DNA of 37,080 bases from Myxococcota bacterium (GTDB lineage Bacteria > Myxococcota_A > UBA9160): positions 1-37,080 of the forward strand of contig DAIOWK010000001.1 in assembly GCA_036758525.1 (NCBI GenBank), given 5' to 3'. Each line of letters starts with the position of its first letter. Position 1 is the first letter of the stretch. Made by a program: the position numbers and the translations under genes. Positions 11,296-37,080 of the stretch are shown piece by piece. Below the pieces are notes generated by a model. It did no database searches. It saw only the letters and a program-made list of their open reading frames with translations, and was not told the origin of the DNA.

Positions 11296-11301
11296 CCAAG
11301 C

Positions 11302-11309: not shown

Positions 11310-11342
11310 GAGGGGGACCGCAAAACTCTCGGGGACGCCACA

Positions 11343-12038: not shown

Positions 12039-12055
12039 GGAACTCGCGGAGCCGC

Positions 12056-12598: not shown

Positions 12599-12621
12599 CG
12601 TGGGGGCGCCGCCTCCTTGGG

Positions 12622-13068: not shown

Positions 13069-13070
13069 GG

Positions 13071-14696: not shown

Positions 14697-14751
14697 CGCC
14701 GCGGCAGCTCCACTTTTGCTCGACGGTTCGAAACCCGCGTTTTGAGGTCAC

Positions 14752-14812
14752 GCGGGGAGCGCCCGGGGAGGCAACCCTTGCACACCCGGGCGCTCCCCGC
14801 TCTCTTTTCCCT
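14752..14812 (+). terminator. Rho-independent terminator (plus strand)
   Basis: A perfect 16-bp stem pairs GCGGGGAGCGCCCGGG (14752-14767) with CCCGGGCGCTCCCCGC (14785-14800). The loop is 17 nt and is followed by TCTCTTTTCCCTT. The minus-strand flank is not T-rich. Confidence 0.6.
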
Positions 14813-14930
14813 TGCGCAAGACGGACCGATCTCTGTCGCGCGAGAGCGTGGTGTCGGTCCCGAGGACCCACAGCCTGCTTCAGTTCCTCGAGGCGCGGCA
14901 TCCGCCGGGGTCGCCCCTTGAGTCGTCGGG

Positions 14931-16070: not shown

Positions 16071-16077
16071 ACAGGCG

Positions 16078-16085
16078 AGAGTATC
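16078..16085 (-). promoter_or_regulatory. Candidate -10 element (GATACTCT on the minus strand), 7-9 nt upstream of ATG 16070
   Basis: The minus strand reads cGATACTCTcgcctgtATG. It contains GATACT and TACTCT (TANNNT). No SD lies within 12 nt. Confidence 0.3.
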
Positions 16086-16286
16086 GCCTTGGCGTCCCTC
16101 CTGCGCAGGTGGGATTTGTTTCTCAGACCGGCGAGCTCCGGCTCGTGGCATGCCTGCCTTTACGCCGCATCGGGCCGCATGGAGGTGAGGAGCCCGCATG
16201 GCGCACGTCTTGACAAGCGAACCTCGCTTCATGCACAAGGAGTGCCGCAACCGAACGCGATACCGCATGGGTGAGGGGAGGGAGGG

Positions 16287-17039
16287 ATGGCCTACGAGAT
16301 CCGGGAAATGGCCTTTGCTGAGGTCCTGGACAGCGCGTTTCAGCTCCTGCGCGACCACTTCGTTCTTCTTGTGGGGACCTCCGCAATTACTCTGGTCCCG
16401 GTTCAGCTCGGGATCCTACTTTTTCCGCGCGCAACGCTCAGGGGGGCGGGAGGGATCGTGGTTGTAGCTCTCCTTATCCTCATCATTTCTCCGTTCGTTC
16501 GAGCGCTGCAGGCCTTTGTGATCGGTGAGCTCTATCTCGGCCGGTCCGTATCGCTGGGACAAGCTTACGGACAGATTCTGCGGATTTTCTTCCCGCTCAC
16601 GGGGACAATTTTTCTCTCAAGCCTCGCGATCATGGGCGCGACCCTATTGCTCGTCCTACCAGGGATCTATTTCGGTCTGGCGTTCGTTTTGATCAATCAA
16701 GTCATGGTATTTGAGCGCACGTTCGGCGCGCAGGCGCTCGGTAGAAGCCGGGAACTGATGCAGGGAAATTTTCTTCGCGCAATTGGGATCCTGCTTCTAG
16801 AAGCAGTCATGAGCTGGACGCTGACGTTCGGAGTCAGTCTCGCTCTTAGGCTCGTTCCGTGGCCGTGGCTTCACGCGCTCGCCGCAGGGATTTCTGCGTC
16901 TGTCGCCTCGGCTTTCGGTGCCGCGGCGTTAGTCGTGCTCTACTTCGAGATTCGCTGCCGCAAAGAGGCGTTCGATCTCGAGCATCTCGCGCGCCTCGTA
17001 GAGGTAGGCGACAATCTGGCTGCCGCTCCTACCGCATAG
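16287..17039 (+). CDS. Polytopic membrane protein (UPF0259/DUF975-like, first gene of the MoxR cluster)
   Basis: GGGAGGGAGGG lies immediately before ATG 16287. About 6 hydrophobic segments are visible. The C-terminus LYFEIRCRKEAFDLEHLA is typical of this membrane-domain family as I recall it. Confidence 0.8.
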   Translation: MAYEIREMAFAEVLDSAFQLLRDHFVLLVGTSAITLVPVQLGILLFPRATLRGAGGIVVVALLILIISPFVRALQAFVIGELYLGRSVSLGQAYGQILRIFFPLTGTIFLSSLAIMGATLLLVLPGIYFGLAFVLINQVMVFERTFGAQALGRSRELMQGNFLRAIGILLLEAVMSWTLTFGVSLALRLVPWPWLHALAAGISASVASAFGAAALVVLYFEIRCRKEAFDLEHLARLVEVGDNLAAAPTA

Positions 17040-17068
17040 GCGGGCACTCGAGAGAACGTCCGTACGCG

Positions 17069-17689
17069 ATGAGTTCAATCGATTTGCCGTCGGACGACGC
17101 CCTGCGCTCTTTGGCGTCGCAGATCCTAGCTCGGCCGGAGTACGCGAAGTTTCGACCGTTTGACGAGGTGTGGTGGCTCCATCTGAAGTCCGCTGTTTTG
17201 CGGTTGCAATCCTGGGTGGCGAATCTCGATCCCTGGCTGTATGCAACCATTCTCGGCGGGCTCGTGTTCCTGCTGGCGCTCCTCATCTTTCACATCGTGT
17301 GGTCTCTTCGTGCGGCGCTCGGCGCCGCATCAAACGTGCCCCATCGAGCGGCCAATACGCACGCCACCGCTCTCGATGTGCAGGCGCGCCGTCTTGCGGA
17401 GGAGGGGTACTTTCTCGACGCTGCGCATCAAATGCACCTCGCGTGCATCGACCGGCTCTTGCGCGAGGGTGTCTTCGAACTCCATCGACACGATCCCAAT
17501 CGGACCCTCCGCAGACGCCTCAAAGCAACTTCGATGCGTGAAGATCTAAAGACAGCGTTCATCTCACTCCTCGAACGCCTCGAGAGAAGGTGGTTCCGGG
17601 ACCACACCGAGGATCCGTCTGACCGCGAGCTTTACGACGAGTGGCGAGACCTACACGAGCGTATTGAGTCCGCGGGGCCTGTTCAGTGA
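17069..17689 (+). CDS. DUF4129-like membrane-anchored protein
   Basis: The ATG at 17069 lies inside listed ORF 16859..17689. There is one central TM segment (LYATILGGLVFLLALLIFHIVW). The helical C-terminal region ...TLRRRLKAT...LLERLERRWFRD... resembles DUF4129. Its stop overlaps the next start. Confidence 0.68.
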   Translation: MSSIDLPSDDALRSLASQILARPEYAKFRPFDEVWWLHLKSAVLRLQSWVANLDPWLYATILGGLVFLLALLIFHIVWSLRAALGAASNVPHRAANTHATALDVQARRLAEEGYFLDAAHQMHLACIDRLLREGVFELHRHDPNRTLRRRLKATSMREDLKTAFISLLERLERRWFRDHTEDPSDRELYDEWRDLHERIESAGPVQ

Positions 17690-18927
17690 GACGTCCCGCT
17701 GCAATCCTTTCGCTTGTGGTGTTCTTTGGCCTTGTGATCGTTGGTTTGTGGCGAGGCGACGACTACCGCGATCTCAGCGCCACAAGCTTTGGCAGAATCC
17801 CTAGCGGACATCGAGCCCTATACGATTTCCTGTCCGAGCTTGGGCTCGCCGTTGCCCGCAGCTATGCACCGCCTACCCAGCTTCCCGCTCACGCGACCGT
17901 GTGGTGGATCGAACCCGACCGCCCATGCGAGGAGCCCAAGGCGGAGGACGAGCCATCGACTGGGCGCGATCGACGTGTGCCTGAGCCGGTTCTCGATGGC
18001 CCAGGCCTCAACCGCTGGATCGCTGAGGGAGGAACGGCGGTGGTCTTTCTGCCGCCCGATTCGCATGTCTGCTCCCGGGACGCGAAGCTTGCGGGCGTGA
18101 GCTTGCCGCCTCGCGAGGAGGTCGCGGTAGATGCAGCGATCTCCGCTGGGAAAGTCGACACGACACGCATCGCGCGTGCGGCGCAGGTTAGCGTAGAGGG
18201 TAGGCTCGTCTCCCAGCCCCGCATCCTCGATCTCCGCACACCTTGGAGCTTCCAAGACGCCTTCCAGGACGTAGCCGGAAGCGGTGCCGAGACGCGCTGG
18301 GAAGCCGCCGCCCGGGTCGGCGCGCGCCCGTTCGTGCTGTGGCAGCGACTCGGTCAAGGGCAGCTCGTCGTAGTAGCGGACGCTCGCTTTGTGCGGAACT
18401 CGGGGCTTGATCGCGCCGACGCCGCACTGCTCGTGGCGGACCTGGTCCGGGCCTACGGAGTGCCATGGATCGATGAGCGCGCTCACGGCCTCGTCGTTTC
18501 GAGAAGTGCCCTCGCCTATCTTGTGGCCTCACCGGCCGCTCCATTTCTCGCGGGCGCGGCGATTCTCGCGCTGGCCTTTGTGTGGTTCCACGCCGCGACG
18601 CCTCCGAGGCGCGTCCCTGAGCTCGATCCCAGCGCACCCAGTCTCGACGCCTTCGTGGACTCGCTCGCCGCGTGTTACGCCTCAACTCGCGACTATGCTC
18701 GTGTCTTTGAGCGCTTTCGCGAACTCACCTCGCGTCGCCTCCGCAGGCACTTCGGTTTGCCTCCGGACGCGCCCGAATCCCAACTCCTCGAGCGCCTGCG
18801 GCGGCGCTGCGCATTGCCTCCCGAGGCGCTCGATCTGCTGGCAAAGGGAACCCCGCTTCGGAGTGCCAGCGAACTCGAGACCGCGGTCCAGCAGATCGAT
18901 CATGTGGTTCGGGAGGCCATCGGATGA
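17686..18927 (+). CDS. DUF4350-like protein with an N-terminal TM anchor
   Basis: The GTG start overlaps the upstream stop (GTGA). MRRPAAILSLVVFFGLVIVGLW is a signal anchor. There is a second hydrophobic segment near residue 290. Its position upstream of moxR is typical for DUF4350. Confidence 0.68.
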   Translation: MRRPAAILSLVVFFGLVIVGLWRGDDYRDLSATSFGRIPSGHRALYDFLSELGLAVARSYAPPTQLPAHATVWWIEPDRPCEEPKAEDEPSTGRDRRVPEPVLDGPGLNRWIAEGGTAVVFLPPDSHVCSRDAKLAGVSLPPREEVAVDAAISAGKVDTTRIARAAQVSVEGRLVSQPRILDLRTPWSFQDAFQDVAGSGAETRWEAAARVGARPFVLWQRLGQGQLVVVADARFVRNSGLDRADAALLVADLVRAYGVPWIDERAHGLVVSRSALAYLVASPAAPFLAGAAILALAFVWFHAATPPRRVPELDPSAPSLDAFVDSLAACYASTRDYARVFERFRELTSRRLRRHFGLPPDAPESQLLERLRRRCALPPEALDLLAKGTPLRSASELETAVQQIDHVVREAIG

Positions 18928-19886
18928 CCGACGCGAGCCCCGCCCCGGTTTCAGCAGTGACGAGGCTGTATCAGGACCTCCTCGCGGGAGTGGGACTGAA
19001 CGTGATCGGTCAGGACGCGGCGGTGCGTCTCGTCTTCGTGACACTGCTTTGCGGGAGTCACAGTCTGATTGAAGGTGTTCCGGGCGTTGCCAAGACGCTC
19101 TTGGTCCGGAGCGTTGCGTCATGCCTCGGCATCCGGTTCGGCCGCGTGCAGTTCACTCCCGACCTTATGCCAAGCGATATCATCGGAACCCCGATCCTCG
19201 ACCCGCGTGCCGGCGAGCTGCGCTTCCGTCCGGGTCCACTCTTCACGGATCTTCTCCTGGCCGATGAGATCAATCGCGCCTCGGCAAAGACACAAGCGGC
19301 ATTGCTGGAAGCCATGCAGGAGCGTGCGGCAACTGTAGATGGTCAAAAACACGTACTTGGCGCACATTTCGCAGTATTTGCGACGCAGAATCCCGTGGAG
19401 CAGGAAGGCACCTATCCCCTACCGGAGGCGCAGCTCGACCGGTTTCTCTTCAAGATCATGATCGACTATCCAAGCGAGGAAGACGAGCGCGCGCTGTTAG
19501 AGCGCCATCACACCGATGAAGTGCCGGTGGCGGAGCCACCCCAAAAGGTGATGCCGGAGCGAATTGACCGCGCGCGAGCCATCGTGCGGGCTGTGAGTGT
19601 GCGGCGTGAGATCACGGAGTACGTGGCAAGCCTCGTGCGCGCGACGCGAGGCGATCTTCACTTCGTGCTTGGTGGCTCGCCACGTGCAGGCGTGCTGCTG
19701 TTGCGTGCCGCAAAGGCAAACGCGGCAATCGAGGGCAGAGACTATGTGTTGCCTGAGGACGTGCAGGAGATGTGGCTACCGGCGCTTCGCCACCGGATTC
19801 AGCTCGAACCCGCGGCCGAGGTAGAGGGTCTCCTAGCCGACGAAGCGCTCCGACAGACGCTTGAGAGTGTGACCGTTCCGCGATGA
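18924..19886 (+). CDS. MoxR-family AAA+ ATPase
   Basis: Contains Walker A GVPGVAKT, Walker B LLADEINR and the MoxR-typical RVQFTPDLMPSDIIGT and FAVFATQNPVEQEGTYPLPEAQLDRF. ATGA overlaps occur at both ends. Confidence 0.94.
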   Translation: MTDASPAPVSAVTRLYQDLLAGVGLNVIGQDAAVRLVFVTLLCGSHSLIEGVPGVAKTLLVRSVASCLGIRFGRVQFTPDLMPSDIIGTPILDPRAGELRFRPGPLFTDLLLADEINRASAKTQAALLEAMQERAATVDGQKHVLGAHFAVFATQNPVEQEGTYPLPEAQLDRFLFKIMIDYPSEEDERALLERHHTDEVPVAEPPQKVMPERIDRARAIVRAVSVRREITEYVASLVRATRGDLHFVLGGSPRAGVLLLRAAKANAAIEGRDYVLPEDVQEMWLPALRHRIQLEPAAEVEGLLADEALRQTLESVTVPR

Positions 19887-21211
19887 CGGTGTGGCCCGCT
19901 CGGTCGCTCGTGTTGGGTCTGGCCGTCTGGACCGGAGCCGCGGCGTTTGCGGTGATGGCACCCTTCCTGGTGCCGGTCCTCCTCGGCTGCCTTGTCATCT
20001 TCGCCACGCTTGGCACCTGGGACTTATGGCTTCTGGGTCGCCGCCCCGCGCTGGAGCTCGAGCGCATCCTTCCGGCGCGAGTTTTTGTTGGACAAGAGAC
20101 ACGAATCGAGCTTCGCTTACGCAACGTCGCCAAGGTTGCCGTGAAGGTTGATGTGCAGGAGGAACTACCCCGCGACGTTTCACAGGTTGAGCCGAGATTC
20201 GGCGACGTCATCGCCGCCCCAGGCGTGGTGACCACCGTTCACTACACGTTGCAGCCTGCCTCGCGCGGAGATCGGCCGCTCGGCGCAGCGGTCCTTTTCG
20301 AGCGTTCGCCGCTCGGACTGTTGCGTCGCCGCCGCTTCGCGGGTGCGGGACAGCTGCTCCGGGTTTACCCCGACACTTCGCACTTCCTTATGAAAGTAGC
20401 GTTGAACCCTCAGCGCATGCGGGTCGCTCTCGGCATGAAGCCGTCGCGGCGACGCGGGGAAGGGATGGACTTCGAGTCGTTGCGCGACTATGTGCCCGGG
20501 GACGATCCGCGGCGCCTCGATTGGGCGGCAAGCGCACGTCGAGGGCGGCCCATCGTGCGACTTCACCAACACGAGCGCAATCACACCGTCGTTGTCGCGC
20601 TCGATTCGAGTCGGCTCATGGCGGCGCGCTCCGAGGGTCGATCGAAACTCGATCACGCGATCGACGCGACGCTGTGCCTCGCATTCGCGGGCCTTGTGTC
20701 GGGGGATCGTATCGGCGTTGTGGTCTTCGATCGCGAGATTCGGGCTCACCTCGCCCCCCGCGCTCATCGCCAGGCGATCGGCGCCTTCAGCGACGTCCTG
20801 CGTCCTCTTCAGCCGCGCATGGTGGAACCGGACTATGCCGCGCTCGTGCGGGATCTGGCGGTTCGCCAGCGCCAGCGCGCGTTCGTCGTGATGCTTACGG
20901 ATTTCGTCGAGGCCGAATCCTCTGGGGTCCCCGCGCCGCTTTCGGTGCTCGCGCGGCGCCATCGTGTATTGGTCGTTGCCATCCGCGATCCAATCTTCGA
21001 TACGCTCGACGCTGAGGATCGGGTGAGCGATTCCCGTGGGATTCTCGGGTTGCACCGGCGTCTTGTTCTGGACGATCTCTTGCACGAGCGCGAGACGACG
21101 CTTGCGCTGCTTCGTCGTCGGGGCGTGCTCACTCTCGACCTACCGCCCCGCAGACTCGTCACCCCGGTTCTAAATCACTATTTGGCGATCCGCTACGGAG
21201 CGGACCCGTGA
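19883..21211 (+). CDS. DUF58 (vWA-like) domain protein with two N-terminal TM helices
   Basis: DFESLRDYVPGDDPRRLDWAASARRGRPIVRLHQHERN is the DUF58 signature. VVVALDSSRLM is a vWA/MIDAS-like beta strand. The ATGA overlap links it to moxR. Confidence 0.9.
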   Translation: MTVWPARSLVLGLAVWTGAAAFAVMAPFLVPVLLGCLVIFATLGTWDLWLLGRRPALELERILPARVFVGQETRIELRLRNVAKVAVKVDVQEELPRDVSQVEPRFGDVIAAPGVVTTVHYTLQPASRGDRPLGAAVLFERSPLGLLRRRRFAGAGQLLRVYPDTSHFLMKVALNPQRMRVALGMKPSRRRGEGMDFESLRDYVPGDDPRRLDWAASARRGRPIVRLHQHERNHTVVVALDSSRLMAARSEGRSKLDHAIDATLCLAFAGLVSGDRIGVVVFDREIRAHLAPRAHRQAIGAFSDVLRPLQPRMVEPDYAALVRDLAVRQRQRAFVVMLTDFVEAESSGVPAPLSVLARRHRVLVVAIRDPIFDTLDAEDRVSDSRGILGLHRRLVLDDLLHERETTLALLRRRGVLTLDLPPRRLVTPVLNHYLAIRYGADP

Positions 21212-22253
21212 GCTCCTCTAGCCAAGCGGTGTCGACGCGTCGCTGGCGGGCGAGGTGCCTGGAGAAGGTGAGCGCGGCGACCAGGAGAAGGGCGAAGGCT
21301 CCGGCGATCGAAAGGCGGGTCGTCGTGCCGAGCTTCGACTCGCGTACGAAGCTCTCCACTGCTCCGGCGACAAAGAAGAGCGGGACGGAGGCGCCGAACA
21401 GCAGCAGGGCAGGATCGATCGCGGTGCGCAGCGCCTCGCGGCGGCCTGAGCGGCCGGGCGCGGCGACTGCCATTCCCAATACTAGCCCAGCAGCCACGCA
21501 GAGCGTGACGGCCGTGAGCTCGGGGATCCCGTGTGGAAGAATCCACGCAAGGAACTCGAGGGGCCAGGGGTCTCTCAGGAAGATGGACGCGATCGCTCCG
21601 AGCGTCATCCCGTTGTAGAGCTGAAGCAGAATGGTGGGCACCGCGGCTAGAATTCCCGTCGCGAAGGCAAGCAGTCCCACCCTGGTGTTGTGGACGAAGA
21701 GCTCGGCGCCAAACAGGGCATTGTGGGCCGCAGGAGTTTTCTCGCGGACAAAGAACTGCACGCGAGCCTCGTGAGATCGGCTAAGGGTTTCGAGTCCTGC
21801 TTGTGAGTAACCGAGTCCGGCTGGCACGAGAGCGGAGAGCGCTTCGGGGTCCCGAGAGCCGAGTACGCCGCCTACGAGGCCCCCGGCCACGAGCAGAAGC
21901 CACGCAGCCGCCTGCGCTCGCCACGTCTGCGCGATGGTGTCGAGGAGCCGGGTGGCGATCGACGGGCTCCGGGCGTGGGGTGCGGCTCGGGAGGCGTACA
22001 GAAACGCGAAGGCGCGGACGCACACCGCGTTGAGATGGCGGATTGCTTCTGGATCTTCGTCCCGGTCGCGGAGGCGTGCAAGCTGCGCCGCGTTGATGCG
22101 ATAGAGGTGCCCGAGCTCACGCAACTCGTCGAACGAGAGATTGTGGGACCGAATCAGCACCGCTCGATCGAGGAGCTCCATGAGCCGTGCGCTCGAGATA
22201 CGGATCGGATCTTGGAGCTTACGGTCAGCAGGCGTCGGCGAGCTCGCTGCCAT
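21159..22253 (-). CDS. SpoIIM-like (DUF95) polytopic membrane protein
   Basis: GGAAAGG lies before ATG 22253. A soluble helical N-terminal region of about 100 aa is followed by about 6 TM segments (e.g. LPHGIPELTAVTLCVAAGLVLG, which is typical of SpoIIM). Its 3' end overlaps the DUF58 3' end by 53 nt. Confidence 0.75.
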   Translation of the reverse strand: MAASSPTPADRKLQDPIRISSARLMELLDRAVLIRSHNLSFDELRELGHLYRINAAQLARLRDRDEDPEAIRHLNAVCVRAFAFLYASRAAPHARSPSIATRLLDTIAQTWRAQAAAWLLLVAGGLVGGVLGSRDPEALSALVPAGLGYSQAGLETLSRSHEARVQFFVREKTPAAHNALFGAELFVHNTRVGLLAFATGILAAVPTILLQLYNGMTLGAIASIFLRDPWPLEFLAWILPHGIPELTAVTLCVAAGLVLGMAVAAPGRSGRREALRTAIDPALLLFGASVPLFFVAGAVESFVRESKLGTTTRLSIAGAFALLLVAALTFSRHLARQRRVDTAWLEELTGPLRSGSPNSDLEPG

Positions 22254-22288
22254 GGTACCTTTCCATTTTGCCAGCAGGATGAACGCCG

Positions 22289-23140
22289 ATGGACGCTCAC
22301 GAGAACCCGGAGTACGAGAGCATCGGCGATGGCCTGCGTCAAGTGGTGCGATCACCCGAGCAGGTGCTTCTCCACTTCCCGGTGGCAGGGCCCACGACTC
22401 GGATGCTGGCCTATGGCATAGACCTCATCGCAGTCTATCTGCTTGAAGGGTTCGTCCTCCTTGTCCTGTTCCTTGCGAGCCCGCTTGCAGCCTGGCTGAT
22501 CCACCAGTTCGACAGCGTTGCCGTGGAGGCAAAGAAGATCCCACAGAGCGCAAGTGAGAGTGCAGCGCTCCTCTATCTTTTTGCGGTCTTCCTGCTCGTC
22601 CAAATCGTGATCGAGTGGGGATACTTTGTGATCTGGGAGCTCTCGTCCGGCGGCCGGTCCCTCGGAAAAATGGCGCTCGAACTCCGCGTGGTTTGCGACG
22701 GCGGGACTCCGATCACACTCCGCGAATCTCTCGTCCGCAACCTCTTGCGGGTGGTCGACTTCTTGCCTGCCAACTACCTGGTGGGTTTGATCGCGATGGT
22801 GGTCTCAGCAGAGGGCAAACGACTCGGCGACGTTGCGGCGGGTACTGTCGTTGTTCGAATGGATCGCCCGGCCGCCGCCTTGCCGCTGCTGGACGAGGGG
22901 GATGCCGGTGCGGCGGGCTTCCGGTTCGACCGCTCTCAAGTTGCGCTTCTTGGACGCGCCGAGCGCGCTCTCCTGCGTCAGACGCTGCGTCGCATGGAGA
23001 CTCTACCACCGGACACCGCCCAGGCCGCATTGGCACGTGCCGTCGAAGTGCTTTGTGCGCGCATCGGCCATGGGCCTGTCGAGCCCGCCGAACACGTCCA
23101 CTTCCTGCGCGCCATGCTGCGTGCGACCCGAGGGCGCTGA
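22289..23140 (+). CDS. RDD-family membrane protein
   Basis: Contains TRMLAYGIDLIAVYLL, WELSSGGRSLGKMALELRVV and LVRNLLRVVDFLP, which are RDD domain hallmarks. It is divergent from the SpoIIM-like gene across a 35-nt gap. Confidence 0.8.
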   Translation: MDAHENPEYESIGDGLRQVVRSPEQVLLHFPVAGPTTRMLAYGIDLIAVYLLEGFVLLVLFLASPLAAWLIHQFDSVAVEAKKIPQSASESAALLYLFAVFLLVQIVIEWGYFVIWELSSGGRSLGKMALELRVVCDGGTPITLRESLVRNLLRVVDFLPANYLVGLIAMVVSAEGKRLGDVAAGTVVVRMDRPAAALPLLDEGDAGAAGFRFDRSQVALLGRAERALLRQTLRRMETLPPDTAQAALARAVEVLCARIGHGPVEPAEHVHFLRAMLRATRGR

Positions 23141-29508: not shown

Positions 29509-30915
29509 TTACGCTGCGCCCGCCGCTGCGAGCAATTCTGCGAAGGCTTCGCGGATCCCGTCCACAAGCTCAGCCAAATCCGGCAGGGCATCCCAGTCGC
29601 CGTTCAGACCCCAGAACAGGCCGCCGTCGTAGCTGAACAGGGCGATGTTAAGTGCCTGACCCGGCATGAGGGGCGCCACGGGATAAGAGGCTCGCATGCG
29701 GCAACCGAGCAGGTAGAGAGGAATCTGAGGCCCCGGCACGTTCGTCACGATCAGGTTGTACGGCCGTGAGTTCGAGGCGAGCCGGATCGATTGCACGAGA
29801 ACGTTGGGCACCGTCCACTCGCTCACGGCTGTCAGCACGCGTCCCCCGAGCGCTTGTTTTGATTCTTTCAGGCCGCTCATCACCTCGCGCACCGCCTTCA
29901 GGCGCTCGATGGGATCCGACAGGGCGACGGGGAGGTCGGCCACCATCTGAGTGATTTGGTTTCCGAGGATGCCGGCCTTGCCCTTCGCACGGACGCTCAC
30001 CGGCACCACCGCCCGAATTTCGAGATCCTGCACCTTGAGCCCGCGGTGGAAGAAGAAGGTACGGAGCGCGCCGGCGACCGTCGCCAGCACCACGTCGTTT
30101 AGCGTGCCCCCGAGCGCGTCCTTCACGCGTTTGAAGTCCGATACGCGATGTTCGGTGAACTCGAACCGTCGGTGCGGGCCGATGGGCACGTTGAAAGGGG
30201 TCTCCGAGGCGGAACGAAATGCGGGGGCGAAGGCCTCGACCACCCCTTCGGCGGCGGCGCGGAGCGCGACCACCGTTTCATCAGGCGTGTTGAGCGCTTT
30301 CCTCACAGCGGAGAGCGCGTCAAAGGGTTGAGTCACACGGTGCCAAAGGGCATCCATCGAGAGCCGCCCGCGGCTCGGTGCGGGCATCGGCGTCCAGGGC
30401 TTTGGCGCGGAAATCGGTGTGTCCGGCGCAAGGTCCATCAAGACCGAGATCAACTCCGCGCCCGCAATGCCGTCAATCATGCAGTGGTGCGTCTTTGAGA
30501 TCAGTGCGAAGCGATCCCCTTCCAGCCCTTCGACGAACCACATTTCCCACAGCGGCTTCCCACGGTCGAGCTGTTGCGACATGATTCTGCCGATCAGACG
30601 CTTGAGTGCGTCGTCGTTACCAGGCCTCGGCAGCGCAGAGTGACGCACGTGGTAGGCGATATTGAAGTGATCGTCGTCAATCCAGATCGGATGTCCTTCG
30701 CCCGGCACCCAAGAGATCCTCTGGCGGAAGCGCGGTACCCGGTCCAGGCGCGCGTCAATCGCCGCCCGTACTCGATCAACGTCGAGGCCCCCCTCCGCGG
30801 TGCGAAGAGGGCCGAGCTCATAGATGAGGACGCCACCGACGTGCATGTGGTGATTCGCATCCTCAAGGCCGAGAAAAGACGCGTCTTGTGCGGTCAGGCG
30901 CTCGTAGTACGGCAT
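29509..30915 (-). CDS. Wax ester synthase / acyl-CoA:diacylglycerol acyltransferase (WS/DGAT)
   Basis: Contains the HHCMIDGIAGAEL (HHxxxDG) catalytic motif and the N-terminal LTAQDASFL. At 468 aa it has the typical length. Confidence 0.92.
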   Translation of the reverse strand: MPYYERLTAQDASFLGLEDANHHMHVGGVLIYELGPLRTAEGGLDVDRVRAAIDARLDRVPRFRQRISWVPGEGHPIWIDDDHFNIAYHVRHSALPRPGNDDALKRLIGRIMSQQLDRGKPLWEMWFVEGLEGDRFALISKTHHCMIDGIAGAELISVLMDLAPDTPISAPKPWTPMPAPSRGRLSMDALWHRVTQPFDALSAVRKALNTPDETVVALRAAAEGVVEAFAPAFRSASETPFNVPIGPHRRFEFTEHRVSDFKRVKDALGGTLNDVVLATVAGALRTFFFHRGLKVQDLEIRAVVPVSVRAKGKAGILGNQITQMVADLPVALSDPIERLKAVREVMSGLKESKQALGGRVLTAVSEWTVPNVLVQSIRLASNSRPYNLIVTNVPGPQIPLYLLGCRMRASYPVAPLMPGQALNIALFSYDGGLFWGLNGDWDALPDLAELVDGIREAFAELLAAAGAA

Positions 30916-30982: not shown

Positions 30983-32488
30983 CTAGTACCCGAAACGGAT
31001 CAGGTCGGCGCGCTCGCGGGCGTAGGCGTAAGCGAACTCGAGTTGGGCGGCGCTCTGCGCATGGATCTCGAACAGCGACTCCCCCCGCGAGACCACGTCG
31101 CCCACCGTACGCAGGAGTCGCACGCCCGCCGCTGCATTGGCGGGTGCTCCGGCGCGCTTCGCCACGCGTGCGATCTCCAGACAATCGATTCCGCGGATGC
31201 GGCCGTCGGCCGAGGACTCCACCGGCACTCGATGGGTTGCAACAGGGGGAAGCTCGCGCGCTCCCTGCGCCTCGACGATGCGCCGGAAGGCCGCCTCGGC
31301 GGCGCCGGAGTCCAACGTGTGCTGCGCCAAGCGGTATCCGGTCGCGGGCGGCGCGGCCCCCACGAGCTCGATCACCCGCGACGCGAGAAACAGCGACTTC
31401 TCGCGCAGGTCTACGGGTGCACCCGGGTCCCGCTTCAGGACCGCGAGCACGTCCAGCGCTTCGAGGCGGGGGCCGATACCGAAGCCCACCGGGCCGGGTG
31501 CATCGGTCACGACCACTTCGATTGCGATCTCGATCTGCTCAGCCACCGCGCGGAACAGGCTTGCGAGTCGCTCGGCGCTCGCTGCGGTCCGCAGCTTCGC
31601 CCTCGGGCCGACCGGTATGTCGATGAGCGCGTGGGTGGCGCCCGCAGTCTTCTTCTTTGAGAGAATCGAGGCCACCATTTGCGCCTCCGTGTCGAGTTCC
31701 ATGGGTCGCTCGACCGTGATCAAGATGTCATCGGCAGGAGCGAGACCGAGGGCGCCGCCCCATGCGATACATGCTCCCACCTTCTCCACCACTTCACGCA
31801 AGCGCTGCGGCGAGAGCGCTACCTCGGCGACCATCGCCATCGTGTCTGCGGTGCCGGCAGGGCTCGTGATCGCCCGCGAGGACGTCTTGGGCACGCGCAC
31901 ACCAAGCGCCGCAAGGATCGGCACGATGACCATCGTCGTTCGATTGCCAGGGACCCCACCCACGCAGTGCTTATCCGCGATGGGTCCAGAACCGAAATCA
32001 AGCCGAGCGCCGCTGTCGATCATGGCACGGGTGAGCGCGACAAGTTCCGGGAGATCCAGTCTTCGAAGGGCACATGCGAGTACGAACATCGATAGCTCAA
32101 TCTTCGAGTAACGATGCCGAACCACGTCGTTCAAGATCGCCGTGAAATCCGCTGCGTTGAGTTTTTCGCCGGAGAGCTTCTTACGGACCAGGTCGACGCT
32201 GTGCGGAGCGGGAGCGATCGTCGCGTGAACAGGCGCCCCCTCGGGCAAGCCGAGGTCACGGAAGGCATCCTCGGAAAGGCCAATCTCCTGGGGTGTCACG
32301 AGCGAATCGCGGCAAAAATTGAGAACGCCAATCACCTCGCGTGTCACTCCGCCGGGAGGCACCGCCTCAACGACGCGCACCCTATCGAGTGGATGGAATC
32401 CGAGGCCGCCGGTCTTCGCGGAGGTTTCGTGGATGAAAAGCACATGCTCAGACAGCGTGTCGATGCACACGCGCTTAATCCGGAACAT
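30983..32488 (-). CDS. Thymidine-phosphorylase-family (NP-II / glycosyltransferase family 3) protein, long form with an extra N-terminal domain
   Basis: DKHCVGGVPGNRTT and SRAITSPAGTADT match the phosphate/pentose-binding segments. The C-terminal alpha/beta domain contains GDVVSRGESLFEIHA. A 90-100 aa N-terminal extension is present (MFRIKRVCIDT...). GGAGG lies 6 nt before the ATG. Confidence 0.9.
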   Translation of the reverse strand: MFRIKRVCIDTLSEHVLFIHETSAKTGGLGFHPLDRVRVVEAVPPGGVTREVIGVLNFCRDSLVTPQEIGLSEDAFRDLGLPEGAPVHATIAPAPHSVDLVRKKLSGEKLNAADFTAILNDVVRHRYSKIELSMFVLACALRRLDLPELVALTRAMIDSGARLDFGSGPIADKHCVGGVPGNRTTMVIVPILAALGVRVPKTSSRAITSPAGTADTMAMVAEVALSPQRLREVVEKVGACIAWGGALGLAPADDILITVERPMELDTEAQMVASILSKKKTAGATHALIDIPVGPRAKLRTAASAERLASLFRAVAEQIEIAIEVVVTDAPGPVGFGIGPRLEALDVLAVLKRDPGAPVDLREKSLFLASRVIELVGAAPPATGYRLAQHTLDSGAAEAAFRRIVEAQGARELPPVATHRVPVESSADGRIRGIDCLEIARVAKRAGAPANAAAGVRLLRTVGDVVSRGESLFEIHAQSAAQLEFAYAYARERADLIRFGY

Positions 32489-32505
32489 GCGGAACCTCCG
32501 TTGGG

Positions 32506-33747
32506 TTACAGCGTGAGAGCTGCCTCGCTGAGTTGCACGCGCTCCAGATCCGCCGGGACCACTGCGGTCCAGCCGAGATCGGCATGGATGCGTTTGCGCA
32601 ATGCCGCCGAGGCGGAGGCCTCTCCGTGTACGACGAAAGCCGTATCAGGTGCGCGTGGCATACCACGCAGCCAGGCGATGAGCTCCTCCTGATCCGCGTG
32701 CACGGAGAACAGGGAGAGCCCGAGCACCTCTGCGCGGACCGGCACGTAGCATCCGTGTATCTTCAACGCGCTTGCGCCTTCAAGCAGAGATCGCCCCCGT
32801 GTTCCTTCGGCTTGGAAGCCAGGTAACATGATCGTGTTGCGAGGGTCGGGAAGGAAATGGGCGAGGTGATGCAACACACGTCCGCCGGTCGCCATCCCGG
32901 AGGCCGAGATGTTGGGGCTGTCGACGTAGACCGGCAAGTCGGGCACGCGACCTTCGCGCATTAGCCCGCGGAGTGCGAGCAACAGGACCTCGGTGCGGTC
33001 CACTGCGAAGGCGGGGATGATGACCGTGCCGCCCCGGTCCGCCGTGCGCGCGATGGCGGTCTCGAACGCGGAGTCGCCATGGTCGGATGGATGGCGGCGA
33101 TCGCCATAGGTCGACTCAATCAGCACGGCGTCAGCGTCGCCGGGGGGCTCCGGTGGACGCAAAATCGGGTGACTCGGGCGCCCAAGATCACCGCTAGGTG
33201 AGCCGGCGAGAGTAAGGTGGACTGTCGCGGAGCCAAGGATGTGTCCGGCAGGACGGAAAATTGCCTGAACGCGGCGGGCGACTTCGACGCTCGTATGAAA
33301 GGGTACCTCACTGAAATCCTCGAGTACACGGGATGCATCTTCTTCAGTGTAGAGAGGCAAGGCCGGCGTATGCTTCGAGAAGCCCTTGCGGTTCGCATAG
33401 CTCGCGTCCTCTTCCTGAAGGTGTCCGCTGTCCGGGAGGACGATCCGGCAAAGGGCGTGAGTCCCCGGAGTTGCGTAAATCGGGCCGCGGAAGCCGTCGC
33501 GTAGAAGGCGCGGGAGATATCCGGAGTGGTCGACGTGTGCGTGCGTCAGCACGACGGCATCGATCGTGGAGGGAGCGACGGGGAACGCGGCCCAGTTGCG
33601 CAAGCGCAGGGATTTCAGGCCTTGAAAGAGTCCGCAGTCCACGAGGACACGGGCGTGCGGCGTATCCAGGAGAAAGCGGCTTCCAGTGACCGTTCCCGTC
33701 GCTCCGAGGAATTGCACGCAGGGAAAGGCTGGCCGGACTACTTCCAT
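32506..33747 (-). CDS. Metallo-beta-lactamase-fold hydrolase of the beta-CASP type
   Basis: Contains LTHAHVDHSGYLP (HxHxDH), SGDLGR, LIESTYGDR, FAVDRTEVLL, SVHAD and VVHGE. The start overlaps the upstream stop by 10 nt. Confidence 0.88.
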   Translation of the reverse strand: MEVVRPAFPCVQFLGATGTVTGSRFLLDTPHARVLVDCGLFQGLKSLRLRNWAAFPVAPSTIDAVVLTHAHVDHSGYLPRLLRDGFRGPIYATPGTHALCRIVLPDSGHLQEEDASYANRKGFSKHTPALPLYTEEDASRVLEDFSEVPFHTSVEVARRVQAIFRPAGHILGSATVHLTLAGSPSGDLGRPSHPILRPPEPPGDADAVLIESTYGDRRHPSDHGDSAFETAIARTADRGGTVIIPAFAVDRTEVLLLALRGLMREGRVPDLPVYVDSPNISASGMATGGRVLHHLAHFLPDPRNTIMLPGFQAEGTRGRSLLEGASALKIHGCYVPVRAEVLGLSLFSVHADQEELIAWLRGMPRAPDTAFVVHGEASASAALRKRIHADLGWTAVVPADLERVQLSEAALTL

Positions 33748-34613
33748 GCGAGCGCTTGGGCGACCAGGGCCGCTGTGCGGATCGCGTTCGTCGGATGAGG
33801 GATGGTGTCGCAGGACGCGATGCGCGTCACACCGGCGGCGCGCACGCGGCCAAGGGCGCCGGGCGCAAAGATCGCGTGAACGACGACCGCCTCGACCGCG
33901 TCTACGCCAGCGCGCCGGAGCGCACGAGCCCCGGCCGCGAGGGTGGTTCCACTGCTGGCGATGTCGTCCAGCAAGACCGCGCGGCGTGCAGGCGGAACCG
34001 TGGGGAATCGGATGCGCACACTGCGATCACCGAGGCGTGTTTTCTCGCCCACGATCCACGCGACCCGGGCGGTGGCGGCCACTGCCTGAACCCAGGGGCG
34101 CGACTCCTCGTCCGGCCCGACGAGGAGCAGCCCGCGGCGGCGACGCGCGAGAAAAGCGCCGATGGCGGGAGCAGCGGAAAGGGAGCGCGCCCGCCCCGGG
34201 ATGACTTCCGAGAGCTCAAACACCCGATGCAGGTGGGCTTCCACCGTGAGGACGGCATCGAAGTCGCGACCGAGGAGCGCCCCCACCGCACGCTGGGAGA
34301 TTGGTTCGCCAGCCGCGAATACGGCGTCCTGTCGCATGTACGGGAGATAAGGCGCAACGAGCGTGACGCGCTGCGCCCCCGCCCGGCGGAGGGCATCCGC
34401 GGCGAGAATCGTCTCAATCAGCTTGGCATTCGGGTTGAAAAGGGATCTCACCACCACAGCGTGTTGGCCCGCCGGCTGCCGTATCCGCACCAGGCTCTCG
34501 CCGTCGGGGAAGCGGTGGAGCGCGACCCGCGTGGTGGGCAGCCGGGCCGCTCGCCCGAGCCGGTGCCCGAAGGCCGCGCTATCGGGGAAGACGTGGATGC
34601 GAGTCTGGTTCAC
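33738..34613 (-). CDS. Ribose-phosphate pyrophosphokinase (PRPP synthetase)-like protein
   Basis: Contains FPDGESLVRI, APYLPYMRQD, VEAHLH and the PRPP-binding loop VLLDDIASSGTT. The GTG start has GGGGA 7 nt upstream. Confidence 0.87.
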   Translation of the reverse strand: MNQTRIHVFPDSAAFGHRLGRAARLPTTRVALHRFPDGESLVRIRQPAGQHAVVVRSLFNPNAKLIETILAADALRRAGAQRVTLVAPYLPYMRQDAVFAAGEPISQRAVGALLGRDFDAVLTVEAHLHRVFELSEVIPGRARSLSAAPAIGAFLARRRRGLLLVGPDEESRPWVQAVAATARVAWIVGEKTRLGDRSVRIRFPTVPPARRAVLLDDIASSGTTLAAGARALRRAGVDAVEAVVVHAIFAPGALGRVRAAGVTRIASCDTIPHPTNAIRTAALVAQALAWK

Positions 34614-34646
34614 CGCACGGTCCCCGGATTCTGGGTGCGATTCGCC

Positions 34647-34652
34647 AACCTA
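34647..34652 (-). promoter_or_regulatory. Candidate -10 hexamer TAGGTT (minus strand) for the prs-like operon
   Basis: The minus strand reads gtgTAGGTTggcg, about 33 nt upstream of GTG 34613. Confidence 0.25.
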
Positions 34653-34969
34653 CACACCGCGCCGACCTGATTCGAAGACTCGAGCGAGCGCGCGATCGCG
34701 AACCAACCCCGGCGAGCAGATGCGGCGCCGCCGGCATGGGTTGCGCCCCCGCGGTCTCGGTGCCGCGGACAACGGAGGCCTACACTTCGAGGACGGGCGC
34801 GCTGCCGAGAACCAGGGCATGGGCGAGGGTGTAGGGTAGCGAGGGCTCGCAGTCGATGGAGCACACCGACCTCGATCGCCGGAGAGGAAGGCACAATTCC
34901 GCCGCCTGCGGCCTCGACGGCGGGTTTGAACCCGTACCTGCGATGGCCGCCGTGCCCGGGATGGACGGG

Positions 34970-34997
34970 CACCCTCAGGAGTTCACCCTCAGGGTGA
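34970..34997. repeat. Direct repeat CACCCTCAGG x2, overlapping a perfect 7-1-7 palindrome TCACCCTcAGGGTGA
   Basis: The copies lie at 34970-34979 and 34984-34993. The palindrome is at 34983-34997, within a 511-bp divergent intergenic region. Confidence 0.35.
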
Positions 34998-35112
34998 CGG
35001 GGAGGGGCGAGGGTCGCGTCTTTCGTGCGCTCGACGCGAGCGGGTCTGCGGCTTCGGGCGCTCCAATGGCGTTCCGGTTCGCGCTTGCGCCGATCTTGTC
35101 CGGACGGCGTGG

Positions 35113-35118
35113 TAGGTT
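35113..35118 (+). promoter_or_regulatory. Candidate -10 hexamer TAGGTT, 6 nt upstream of ATG 35125
   Basis: The sequence reads gtggTAGGTTgcagacATG. No SD is present. Confidence 0.33.
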
Positions 35119-35124
35119 GCAGAC

Positions 35125-36111
35125 ATGGCTTCGAAGACACCGCACGCCGTGAGCGACGATCGGATTCGGATCGGCGTTTCGGCATGCCTCCTCGGCCACG
35201 AAGTGCGTTTCGACGGTAGTCACAAACACGACGCCTTCCTGACGGACATTTTTGCTCGTTTTGTGGAATGGGTACCTGTGTGCCCGGAAGTCGAAATCGG
35301 CATGGGCATCCCCCGTGAGTCGGTCCGCCTCGAGCAAGACGTCAAGGGTTTGCACCTCGTGGCACCCAAGAGTGGACGCGACTGGACGCTCCCCATGCGC
35401 AGCTTCGCTGCGCGGCGGGTTCGGGCCCTTTCGGCGCTCGATCTTTCCGGTTATGTGCTCAAGAAGGACTCCCCGAGCTGTGGGATGGAGCGTGTGCGTG
35501 TGTACGCTCATCAGGAGCGCAGCGTCACGCCGCGACGCGAGGGCCGCGGCTTCTTCGCTCATGCCCTGATCGCAGCAAACCCGATTCTGCCAGTCGAAGA
35601 GGAGGGGCGCCTTTGGGACCCCCGTCTGCGTGAGAACTTCGTCGCAAGGGTCTTCGCCTATCGCCGGCTTCGTGCCTTCTTCGGCGGTCGCTGGACTCTG
35701 GCCGGGATCGTGGCCTTTCACGCCTCCCACAAACTCACGCTGCTCGCGCATTCTCCCGAGGCCTATCAGCGATTGGGTCGCCTCATCGCCAGCGCGAAAG
35801 GGATACCCCGCGTGGAGCTGCGAGCCCGGTACGAGATGGAGTTCATGGGCGCACTCTCGAAGCTCGCGACAATACGCCGACATACGAACGTTCTGGAGCA
35901 TATCGTCGGCCATTTCAAGAAGCGGCTGGATGCTTCTTCGCGGGCTGAACTCGTTGCCCTGATCGGGGAGTATCGTCGTGGACTCGTCCCCCTGATTGTC
36001 CCGATCACGCTGATTCGCCACCACGTGCGGGTCCACAGCATGTCCTACTTGGAGGGGCAGATCTACCTCGACCCCCATCCCAAAGAGCTGATGCTCCGAA
36101 ACCACATCTAG
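35125..36111 (+). CDS. DUF523 (TudS-like [4Fe-4S] thiouracil desulfidase family) fused to a DUF1722 (YbgA-like) domain
   Basis: IRIGVSACLLG, VPVCPEVEIGMGIPR and KKDSPSCGMERV supply the three conserved Cys contexts of DUF523. The C-terminal half (HKLTLLAHSPEAYQRLGRL...LVPLIVPITLIRHH) matches DUF1722. Confidence 0.85.
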   Translation: MASKTPHAVSDDRIRIGVSACLLGHEVRFDGSHKHDAFLTDIFARFVEWVPVCPEVEIGMGIPRESVRLEQDVKGLHLVAPKSGRDWTLPMRSFAARRVRALSALDLSGYVLKKDSPSCGMERVRVYAHQERSVTPRREGRGFFAHALIAANPILPVEEEGRLWDPRLRENFVARVFAYRRLRAFFGGRWTLAGIVAFHASHKLTLLAHSPEAYQRLGRLIASAKGIPRVELRARYEMEFMGALSKLATIRRHTNVLEHIVGHFKKRLDASSRAELVALIGEYRRGLVPLIVPITLIRHHVRVHSMSYLEGQIYLDPHPKELMLRNHI

Positions 36112-36225: not shown

Positions 36226-37080
36226 TCAGTCGATCACGCCTGCGCGCCGCGAGGCAGCCAGGGCCGCGATCCCGTCTACGCGGCGGATTGCCTCACGGAT
36301 CTCGTGTGCAAACGCGGCCCGACGCAGCCCAAGGTCAGGAATTCCCGATTCGAGCAGGCCACGGTTGCGCGCGAGCCGAAGCGCTGTTTCGAACAGAACG
36401 CGAGAGACCGACTCCGCGCTTTGAATCCGGCGCTGAAGCCGATACTGCTTGCCCAGTGCGAGGCATTGACCGAGCAGAGCATTCACGTCACAGGGAGTTC
36501 CGGGATCTTGGCGCTCCAACGCGTCACTCACCACGCGATATGCCTCGAGGAAGGGCCGGAGCACGCGATGAGCGCTGAATGGACGGATCCGCTCCACCAG
36601 CGCCAGGATCTCTGCTGATCCGCGCGAGAGCCTGCTCTCCCACTCACCGTCGTGGAGCGCGAGCTCCTGGCGCAGCTCGCCCCGAAATTTTTCCTTTTCC
36701 GCAAAGAAGAACTCGAACTTAAGAAGATCCCGTAGGCGCATGGCTTCTTCCCAGAACTCTGTCGTCCCGTCGATCACGTCAATTTCCGCCGCGCGGAGCA
36801 GGGCGAGCTCCGCGATCGCGCCATTCACAAAAAAGTGGATCACGGTGTTGCGGTAGTACGCCGCGGTCAGGTGTTGGTCGGGCCCGATCGCGTAAACCGC
36901 TTCAGGTCCCTCAGCAAAACAGGCGACGACGCCGCTGTTCACCAGTGCATCGAGTGCTCGCTGCACCCCCTCTTTGGTATCAAGCTCGAGATCGCAGGTC
37001 GTCGGGAGCGCGCGGCGCCGCACGTAGCCCACGAGCCGACGGAGCGCCTCGACCGTTTCCGCCACGGAGAGGGCTCGGTC
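36226..37080 (-). CDS. Glycerol-3-phosphate acyltransferase PlsB-like protein, C-terminal fragment (5' end outside the window)
   Basis: The frame is open to the window edge; the listed 'M' at 37065 is an internal GTG. Segments such as LTAAYYRNTVIHFF resemble the PlsB C-terminal region as I recall it. I could not check this assignment. Confidence 0.55.
   Translation of the reverse strand, partial: DRALSVAETVEALRRLVGYVRRRALPTTCDLELDTKEGVQRALDALVNSGVVACFAEGPEAVYAIGPDQHLTAAYYRNTVIHFFVNGAIAELALLRAAEIDVIDGTTEFWEEAMRLRDLLKFEFFFAEKEKFRGELRQELALHDGEWESRLSRGSAEILALVERIRPFSAHRVLRPFLEAYRVVSDALERQDPGTPCDVNALLGQCLALGKQYRLQRRIQSAESVSRVLFETALRLARNRGLLESGIPDLGLRRAAFAHEIREAIRRVDGIAALAASRRAGVID

Follow-up and report, generated by a model that had tools for sequence, protein, structure and literature searches.

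Introduction

Archaeal adenosine monophosphate (AMP) phosphorylase acts on AMP, CMP and UMP, which are phosphorolysed to the free base and ribose-1,5-bisphosphate (R15P) (PMC9700705), and a scheme leading from phosphoribosyl pyrophosphate (PRPP) through AMP and R15P to ribulose-1,5-bisphosphate (RuBP) has been described for archaea and for candidate phyla radiation (CPR) bacteria (PMC5113843). Pentose-bisphosphate and nucleoside monophosphate (NMP) phosphorylase metabolism is at present seen as an archaeal trait tied to Rubisco, and some further reports of it come from candidate-phyla bacteria. Here we describe a three-gene locus in a 37,080-nt stretch of DNA from a Myxococcota bacterium (assembly GCA_036758525.1, contig DAIOWK010000001.1, positions 1 to 37,080; contig Ga0311301_10000203 of JGI metagenome 3300032160; hereafter the window), the closest named relatives of which are Candidatus Binatia and "Deltaproteobacteria" metagenome-assembled genomes (MAGs). 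All three genes lie on the minus strand, as an earlier note on this DNA had recorded, and encode, in order of transcription, a paralogue of ribose-phosphate diphosphokinase (Prs-like; 33738..34613, 291 residues, GTG start, taken from the list of open reading frames, ORFs), a β-CASP hydrolase of the metallo-β-lactamase (MBL) fold (32506..33747, 413 residues) and a member of the thymidine phosphorylase (TP) family with an extra N-terminal domain (TP-like; 30983..32488, 501 residues).

Judged by its profile scores, motifs and modelled fold, TP-like is an AMP/NMP-phosphorylase-like enzyme and no ordinary thymidine phosphorylase. It belongs to a separate bacterial clade, NF003338, defined here as a large sister of the archaeal enzymes and locked to its own PRPP-synthase paralogue instead of Rubisco. 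The features described below suggest an unstudied form of bacterial nucleotide recycling during growth arrest. The earlier note had also known of no experimentally characterised bacterial pathway of this composition, and no paper assigning it a function was found in the searchable literature.

The phosphorylase-like protein

TP-like passes the cut-offs of NF003338 (PRK04350; 604.7 bits against 434, E = 1e-181) and TIGR02645 (531.1 bits against 434.6). It scores below those of the DeoA and pyrimidine-nucleoside phosphorylase (PyNP) models NF004490 (197.9 against 269), TIGR02644 (195.4 against 409), TIGR02643 (137.5 against 570.7) and NF004747 (145.7 against 559), and below that of the TrpD model TIGR01245 (40.2 against 199, E = 2.5e-10). 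The Pfam domains identified are Glycos_trans_3N, Glycos_transf_3 and PYNP_C. The top matches in PDB are 4GA5 and 4GA6, both AMP phosphorylase from Thermococcus kodakarensis (329 bits, residues 15-494, 39% identity). The N-terminal extension that the earlier note had read from the translation proves to be a real domain of about 85-95 residues, homologous to that of the T. kodakarensis enzyme: it is included both in the 15-494 alignment to 4GA5 and in the superposition of the AlphaFold2 model of TP-like (pLDDT 91.9) on 4GA5_A, for which Foldseek gives a TM-score of 0.87/0.88 over 507 columns. With the same model, PyNP and TP structures reach TM-scores of 0.66-0.75 and TrpD about 0.5 at 19% identity.

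The active site was compared in an alignment of 21 archaeal AMP phosphorylases, 10 Binatia-type and 71 proteobacterial homologues and the PyNP of Bacillus stearothermophilus. The motifs GG(V/I)PGN(K/R), PKTSSRAITS.AGTAD, ER, S..SKK, WGG and APADD are common to the bacterial proteins and the 21 archaeal enzymes, and GGVPGNR and PKTSSRAITSPAGTAD of TP-like itself are also present in the archaeal AMP phosphorylases. Also kept are the three PyNP residues that bind the base (Arg, Ser and Lys) and the three of its phosphate loop (Lys, Ser and Thr). Profile scores, tree, motifs and fold thus agree in placing the protein in the N-terminally extended AMP/NMP-phosphorylase branch to which the earlier note had pointed, outside both DeoA/PyNP and TrpD, and TP-like is predicted to work like the archaeal AMP phosphorylase without being a member of that curated family.

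Seven columns of the alignment discriminate the bacterial from the archaeal clade, and only one of them, a Ser to Cys replacement, belongs to the active site. This is Cys175 of TP-like (31963..31965, minus strand), located in a DKHC motif in the bacterial clade versus DvHS in the archaeal enzymes; the position is 95% Cys in the bacterial clade versus 100% Ser, a phosphate-binding residue, in the archaeal AMP phosphorylases, and PyNP also has Ser. An active-site thiol might render TP-like sensitive to redox state or to metals, which, if true, would be of interest given the hypoxia and metal-island context described below.

The PRPP-synthase paralogue

The Prs-like translation contains YLPYMRQD and VLLDDIASSGTT, both picked out in the earlier note. 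The protein passes NF005537 (PRK07199; 348 bits against a cut-off of 322, E = 4e-104) and TIGR01251 (173.6 bits against 113), and it falls under every class I equivalog cut-off (for example 102.5 bits against 297 for NF002320) and under the archaeal model NF002095. The top match in PDB is 1U9Y, the class III Prs of Methanocaldococcus jannaschii. Because the protein falls in subfamily NF005537, scores under all class I cut-offs and has relatives on 110 plasmid records, it is not of the housekeeping type; the special paralogue postulated earlier is in this respect borne out, and by family assignment the protein is a dedicated class-III-like PRPP synthase rather than the housekeeping class I prs product. 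The motifs RFPDGE, YMRQD, H(LHR), GPD, K.R and DD..S.G.T are kept across 69 family members, and the protein looks catalytically competent.

The gene call deposited with the source contig places a 291-residue protein lacking any Pfam match at 33795..34670 on the plus strand, antisense to the Prs-like ORF. Since the called gene sits on the opposite strand, public annotation misses the Prs-like gene of this organism; the call is probably an antisense-ORF miscall of the kind met in high-GC DNA.

The Prs-like stop and the MBL start overlap by 10 nt (33738..33747, minus strand; ATGGAAGTAG), which indicates that the two genes would be translationally coupled; the overlap written out in the earlier note, gcATGGAAGTAGtc, was read again in the sequence. 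The MBL stop is followed by a 17-nt spacer (32489..32505, minus strand; cccaacGGAGGttccgc) that holds a GGAGG ribosome-binding site, and then by the ATG of the TP-like gene, again as noted before.

Conservation of the gene pair

Species genomes of GTDB were scanned with TP-like motifs, which gave at least 590 confirmed loci, and 80 of these were kept for neighbourhood counts within ±8 kb. A reciprocal scan of metagenome contigs used motifs specific to the Prs-like family as anchor and likewise comprised 80 loci. A Prs-like gene is found in 69 of the 80 TP-anchored genome loci, almost always directly adjacent. In the reciprocal direction a TP-like gene occurs on the same strand in 60 of the 80 Prs-anchored loci, and in 28 of the 31 for which at least 1.7 kb of sequence is available on both sides. 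The β-CASP gene is present in only 12/80 and 18/80 loci, respectively. The view that the three genes form a unit therefore holds for TP-like and Prs-like, which are syntenic, and fails for the third gene: what is conserved is the pair of TP-like and Prs-like rather than all three genes, and the MBL protein is a recurrent, independently recruited accessory member. Clustering of the flanking ORFs of the 80 loci returned no other widely conserved neighbour, none exceeding about 10% (DUF1614, an ATM1-like ABC exporter, Tag and HupE being those found).

The gene order is Prs-[MBL]-TP in the clade of the window and [MBL]-TP-Prs in most Proteobacteria, and loci of the window's clade are made up variously of Prs-MBL-TP, Prs-TP or MBL-TP. 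On annotated plasmids the MBL, TP and Prs genes follow one another with 4-nt overlaps. The clade as a whole is spread over Proteobacteria and Binatia-like and Myxococcota-like lineages, and the locus described here is not peculiar to the window but a single copy of a bacterial module that is widespread and moves horizontally.

Individual loci carry additional genes. A Binatia-type MAG encodes a 509-residue protein (9507..11036, plus strand) that has no Pfam or NCBIfam match and abuts the TP-like stop, and between the Prs-like and TP-like genes of Ralstonia wenshanensis and R. solanacearum lies one for a DUF1488 protein (11658..11936, plus strand).

The β-CASP protein

Pfam identifies Lactamase_B, Beta-Casp and RMMBL in the MBL protein of the window; the Beta-Casp match covers profile positions 79-120 of 120 (42/120). 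The top match in PDB is the Thermus thermophilus RNase TTHA0252, and in this alignment residue 280 of the query joins residues 254 and 310 of the chain. Compared with relatives of 467-470 residues, the protein has two in-frame gaps, of about 6 residues before the SGD motif and of 56 residues in the β-CASP domain, the latter between "VDSP" and "ISASGM". The intact RNase-like partner assumed in the earlier note is accordingly not what the window encodes. Nevertheless, the metal-binding and catalytic residues and the RMMBL domain are present despite the deletions, and H69, H71, D73, H74, H169, D187, H350 and H374 are invariant in the alignment with the relatives. The exact protein is recorded on one contig only, and the deletions could mean that the gene is decaying, that this lineage has a trimmed variant, or that the assembly is at fault.

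Assignment to Cas14 (313 bits against 800) was rejected, and RNase J was likewise ruled out by score. The MBL family occurs on 235 plasmid records versus 126 for TP-like and thus also exists independently of the pair. On the megaplasmid of Cupriavidus metallidurans CH34 a protein of the same family (1123604..1124953, 47% identity) has no TP-like or Prs-like gene within 13-14 kb on either side.

Plasmids, stress genes and low oxygen

TP-like is found on 126 and Prs-like on 110 plasmid records, which makes the module accessory rather than housekeeping. Its plasmid neighbours encode heavy-metal and copper P-type ATPases, major facilitator superfamily (MFS) transporters, DUF2933, ICMT, LemA/TPM, ppk2 and Hsp20, and further FtsH, a PfkB kinase, CusABC and oleate hydratase. 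A recurrent island was observed on mobilizable or conjugative plasmids (Acidovorax p1-T1, Variovorax, Ralstonia insidiosa pB1901), next to copper-resistance genes. It contains DUF2933, ICMT, MBL-TP-Prs, DUF6629, a heavy-metal P-type ATPase, MFS, LemA/TPM/YgcG, ppk2 and a VTT-domain protein, and no description of the whole island was found in searchable papers.

On Agrobacterium and Rhizobium plasmids a gene of the phosphoketolase family is inserted between Prs and MBL-TP, and a Crp/Fnr regulator and an FNR-like box lie upstream. The operon of Agrobacterium pAtCFBP6623a (9622..17918, minus strand) reads P-type ATPase, Prs-like, phosphoketolase family, MBL, TP-like and cytochrome b, with FNR-like boxes upstream; its phosphoketolase-family protein is annotated as "xylulose 5-phosphate 3-epimerase". 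The FNR-like box on one Agrobacterium plasmid is suggestive but too weak to generalise. In the window's own clade, Usp-CBS or Usp genes stand beside the module in 8 loci, and Hsp20, MgtC, PFK and P-type ATPase genes are also met there.

A direct link to oxygen comes from Bradyrhizobium diazoefficiens, in which, according to the tabulated data of PMC6515984, growth at 0.5% O2 induces the adjacent genes bll3115 (MBL), bll3116 (Prs) and bll3117 (TP family). The log2 fold changes of the proteins are 2.9, 4.4 and 2.1, respectively, and the fold changes of the transcripts 15.4, 7.7 and 5.1; in the same tabulated data the three genes are neither NifA targets nor direct FixK2 targets (PMC6515984). This table is also the sole direct mention in the full-text literature searched, where a functional study of the pair or trio was not found. 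The bacterial clade thus travels on conjugative plasmids in stress and metal islands and is switched on by microoxia in a model rhizobium; both the plasmid mobility and the low-oxygen and stress context go beyond the earlier note.

Surroundings of the locus in the window

A wax ester synthase/diacylglycerol acyltransferase (WS/DGAT) gene, a wax-ester/triacylglycerol synthase (29509..30915, minus strand; TIGR02946, 455.8 bits), follows the operon at a distance of 67 nt. No terminator-like hairpin was found inside the three-gene unit or in the spacer to this gene, which may be co-transcribed with the operon in the window. A WS/DGAT (tgs1) belongs to the mycobacterial dormancy regulon. A WS/DGAT gene was found in none of the 80 related TP-anchored loci.

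On the other side, the intergenic region 34614..35124 separates the operon from a divergent neighbour outside the module and presumably holds the operon promoter. A promoter scan of this region returned no sigma-70-like site, and no FNR-type box was found upstream of the operon. The window region has no Rfam match at E ≤ 1, and neither have 8 related loci, that is, no riboswitch or leader RNA was detected in them. The divergent gene (35125..36111, plus strand) encodes a TudS (2-thiouracil desulfurase) protein with DUF1722 (Pfam PF04463 and PF08349). A theme of modified-nucleobase salvage had been built on this neighbour; TudS occurs in 0/80 related TP-anchored loci, and the proposed link has no basis.

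Further away, the C-terminal region of a PlsB-type glycerol-3-phosphate acyltransferase lies at the window edge (36226..37065, minus strand). A 475-residue protein with a LOG, or "possible lysine decarboxylase" (SLOG), domain is encoded at 14931..16358 (minus strand); it scores just under the TIGR00730 cut-off, has only faint similarity to the NMP nucleosidase PpnN, and may give the window a second nucleotide-cleaving enzyme, one that works by hydrolysis. A cluster of DUF4350, a 320-residue ORF and DUF58/VWA (17686..21211, plus strand) and a SpoIIM-family membrane protein (21159..22355, minus strand) bear no relation to the module.

Discussion

From the families, motifs, fold, pairing, plasmid carriage and stress-type neighbours described above we infer the substrates, flux direction and physiological role of the module. 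The reading we prefer, to which we give a probability of about 0.45, is that of a stress and low-oxygen nucleotide-recycling module in which RNA is converted to 5'-NMPs and these to base and R15P. Oxygen limitation, or another stress that arrests growth, would lead to RNA being trimmed to 5'-NMPs, by the β-CASP protein where one is present. TP-like would then catalyse the reversible reaction of NMP and inorganic phosphate to base and R15P, as the near-identity of its active-site motifs with the archaeal enzyme and its fold suggest. Prs-like would work within the same pool, made up of adenylates and 1-activated ribose-5-phosphates, so that the pair together would remodel or salvage nucleotide and pentose-phosphate pools. 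We are more confident of two components taken singly, namely NMP-phosphorylase-type chemistry, as predicted from motifs and model, and an accessory module linked to stress or low oxygen, than of the whole, and our confidence in any specific role of Prs-like is low.

Prs-like is tied to the phosphorylase in that AMP is both a product of PRPP synthase and the presumed substrate of the phosphorylase, and in that PRPP and R15P are both C1-activated ribose-5-phosphates one phosphate apart. It may make PRPP to re-salvage the released bases, it may feed a PRPP to AMP to R15P route of the archaeal style, it may supply PRPP for a TrpD-like transfer, or it may run in reverse and regenerate ATP. The conversion of R15P to PRPP by Prs-like, the last step of the salvage route in the earlier note, is not supported.

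Several observations count against the recycling module as proposed. On the side of the enzyme, TP-like misses the AMP phosphorylase equivalog TIGR03327 (AMP_phos; 458.8 bits against a cut-off of 535), the bacterial and archaeal clades are split in 200/200 neighbor-joining bootstraps at an identity of 34-43%, and the searchable literature yielded no published assay of any bacterial-clade enzyme. On the side of the gene set, the nuclease that would generate the NMPs is encoded in 15-22% of the loci and missing from about 80%, the copy in the window is the one with the deletions, and simple NMP degradation leaves the co-inheritance of a PRPP synthase unexplained. Within ±8 kb of the 80 genome loci the conserved neighbours include neither R15P isomerase nor Rubisco, which leaves the fate of R15P unexplained. 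On the side of regulation, microoxic induction is documented in one organism, by one paper; FNR-like boxes stand upstream of 7/130 modules versus a background of 1.3%, a weak enrichment; the flanks of the window's own locus hold no Usp, Hsp20 or ATPase genes; and the many plasmid copies in metal-resistance islands suggest a broader or different stress link.

The alternative that survives best, though we consider it unlikely, is PRPP-dependent phosphoribosyl transfer, in which Prs-like supplies PRPP, TP-like puts ribose-5-phosphate on a nucleobase or other acceptor in the manner of TrpD with release of pyrophosphate, and the MBL protein processes the product or a precursor. A PRPP consumer would be expected to be paired strictly with its own PRPP-synthase paralogue, as TP-like is, and the fold family does include TrpD (Foldseek TM about 0.5; TIGR01245, 2.5e-10). 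The TrpD motif is R-x-x-S-S-x-x-G-S-A-D, and the TP-like loop R-A-I-T-S-x-A-G-T-A-D is nearer to it than to the R-G-L-G-H-T-G-G-T-x-D of TP. However, TP-like is far closer to the phosphate-using NMP phosphorylase than to TrpD (329 versus 32 bits, TM 0.87 versus 0.5), the PyNP base-binding and phosphate-loop residues listed above are all kept, and dedicated PRPP-dependent base phosphoribosyltransferases already exist in bacteria. Given how nearly the phosphorylase active site matches the archaeal one, a switch to PRPP chemistry is disfavoured, and the ribosylation of an acceptor, offered in the earlier note as its second option, appears less likely for the same reason.

A somewhat more doubtful reading is synthesis of R15P rather than its release from RNA: Prs-like would make PRPP, the housekeeping adenine phosphoribosyltransferase would convert it to AMP, and TP-like would produce R15P, which would go on to RuBP and Rubisco, to another pentose-bisphosphate route or to a role as regulator. 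The archaeal and CPR scheme provides a precedent, with Prs-like and TP-like as its first and third steps (PMC5113843). The absence of R15P isomerase and Rubisco genes from the conserved neighbours is at odds with it and, together with the diversity of the hosts, makes it less likely that the archaeal NMP shunt has simply been copied. A point in favour of R15P synthesis is that many module hosts (Chromatiaceae, Nitrosomonas, Thiomicrorhabdus, Hydrogenophaga and Bradyrhizobium among them) come from lineages generally known for Calvin-cycle autotrophy; many other hosts (Sphingobium, Legionella, Ruegeria, Novosphingobium) are not known to be autotrophs, and such a cycle costs ATP with no obvious gain under energy limitation.

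Equally doubtful is the idea that the pair is an oxygen-independent device that conserves energy and nucleotides for growth arrest, a bacterial pentose-bisphosphate metabolism free of Rubisco. NMPs from RNA would again be phosphorolysed to R15P, and Prs-like would then not be a net PRPP producer but would transfer to AMP or ADP either a phosphoryl group, from C1 of R15P, or a diphosphoryl group, from PRPP; the energy of the glycosidic bond would be recovered as ADP or ATP, and ribose-5-phosphate would enter phosphoketolase or the pentose-phosphate route. In the reverse direction adenylates could be rebuilt cheaply from adenine on resuscitation. Energy harvest from NMPs is unfavourable under standard conditions by a rough thermodynamic estimate, and for this reason it is not favoured here.

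That the module answers metal stress, by providing a metal-insensitive supply of PRPP and nucleotides or by repairing pools when the housekeeping enzymes are poisoned as it travels with copper and heavy-metal efflux, strikes us as improbable. Plasmid copies do stand right next to, or within, operons for heavy-metal P-type ATPases, CusABC, HMA-domain proteins, DUF2933, CopC and metal sensor kinases, and metabolites from which Staphylococcus aureus makes PRPP are reported to rise on exposure to copper (PMC10249872), from which we infer that Prs might be a copper target. On the other hand, metal genes are missing around the chromosomal copies of the window's clade and of most Proteobacteria, low-oxygen regulons also typically include P-type ATPases (FixI; BCAM0318 in lxa), and the conserved active-site Cys of TP-like would, if anything, confer sensitivity to thiophilic metals.

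Ordinary pyrimidine salvage, that is, a normal thymidine phosphorylase, a housekeeping prs and an unrelated MBL gene that are neighbours by chance, is what the public annotation implies ("thymidine phosphorylase (family protein)", "ribose-phosphate pyrophosphokinase"), and it is very improbable. It is already contradicted by the family tests, in which TP-like falls under every DeoA/PyNP cut-off and Prs-like under every class I cut-off; the N-terminal domain and AMP phosphorylase motifs, a pairing kept across phyla and on plasmids, and the microoxic induction are further points against it. Hardly credible, finally, is depletion of nucleotides by a nuclease and a nucleotide-cleaving enzyme in an anti-phage or toxin-like role: nucleotide-degrading effectors do occur in defence systems, the module is mobile and often plasmid-borne, and TIR and PIN genes lie near it in one related locus, but PADLOC-DB gives no match for TP-like, MBL or TudS and only a marginal one for Prs-like (E = 0.0012, to the phosphoribosyltransferase (PRTase) motif of PsyrT), the module is essentially absent from phage genomes, regulation by oxygen tension is physiological, and the neighbours are stress, transport and metabolic genes rather than defence islands.

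If nucleotide recycling under stress and low oxygen is the correct reading, many aerobic bacteria possess an unrecognised way of handling AMP or NMPs and ribose-phosphates when respiration fails, with a bearing on dormancy, on how bacteria persist in nodules, sediments and hypoxic niches, and on how thousands of "thymidine phosphorylase" annotations are to be read.

Comparison with known systems

The genomic setting of the module is closest to that of three low-oxygen or dormancy gene sets, the lxa locus of Burkholderia cenocepacia, the DosR regulon of Mycobacterium tuberculosis (its composition in part as given in the lxa paper) and the microoxic regulon of B. diazoefficiens, with which it shares neighbour families: universal stress, CBS, Hsp20/alpha-crystallin, cation P-type ATPase and PfkB/PFK kinase proteins and, in the window, WS/DGAT. 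The lxa locus is a parallel only, as the main text of the lxa paper mentions neither TP-like nor Prs-like nor MBL among its genes.

Among structurally characterized relatives of the β-CASP protein, the TTHA0252 RNase (2DKF, 3IEK) has the same MBL, β-CASP and RMMBL parts, and the window protein keeps its HxHxDH motif, His, Asp and motifs A, B and C. It differs from TTHA0252 in lacking about 56 residues of the β-CASP domain and about 6 before SGD and in being coupled to genes of nucleotide metabolism. Prs-like has the two-domain PRTase-type fold of the M. jannaschii class III Prs (1U9Y/1U9Z) and of class I Prs, and shares with known Prs the RFPDGE and RQD motifs, a His, the Asp of GPD, the flexible loop with K.R and the loop DD..T.GT for ribose-phosphate. 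What sets its own subfamily apart is YMRQD, HLHR and the absence of any conserved basic residue behind RQD; unlike known Prs, Prs-like almost always adjoins TP-like, is plasmid-borne and is induced by microoxia.

TP-like belongs to the same Pfam fold family as DeoA/Pdp (1BRW, 1TPT) and retains the Arg/Ser/Lys contacts to the base and the Lys/Ser/Thr contacts to phosphate. It is only 26-33% identical to these enzymes, misses all of their curated cut-offs, has the extra N-terminal domain and keeps other genomic partners; its phosphate loop reads KTSSRAITSPAGTAD, versus KMSGRGLGHTGGTIDK in the classical thymidine and pyrimidine-nucleoside phosphorylases (SGRGLGHTGGT type). The closest known system remains the archaeal AMP/NMP phosphorylase of the pentose bisphosphate pathway, or NMP shunt (T. 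kodakarensis, DeoA-like, EC 2.4.2.57; 4GA4/4GA5/4GA6). Both have the same four-part architecture of N-terminal extra, helical, alpha/beta and PYNP_C domains and the same phosphate-loop and base-binding motifs, and both would make or use R15P. Besides the clade split, the missed cut-off and the active-site Cys described above, the two differ in company: the partner of TP-like is a Prs-like gene and not R15P isomerase and type III Rubisco, and whereas the haloarchaeal phosphorylase is present only in Rubisco-bearing species, the bacterial one is often carried on plasmids.

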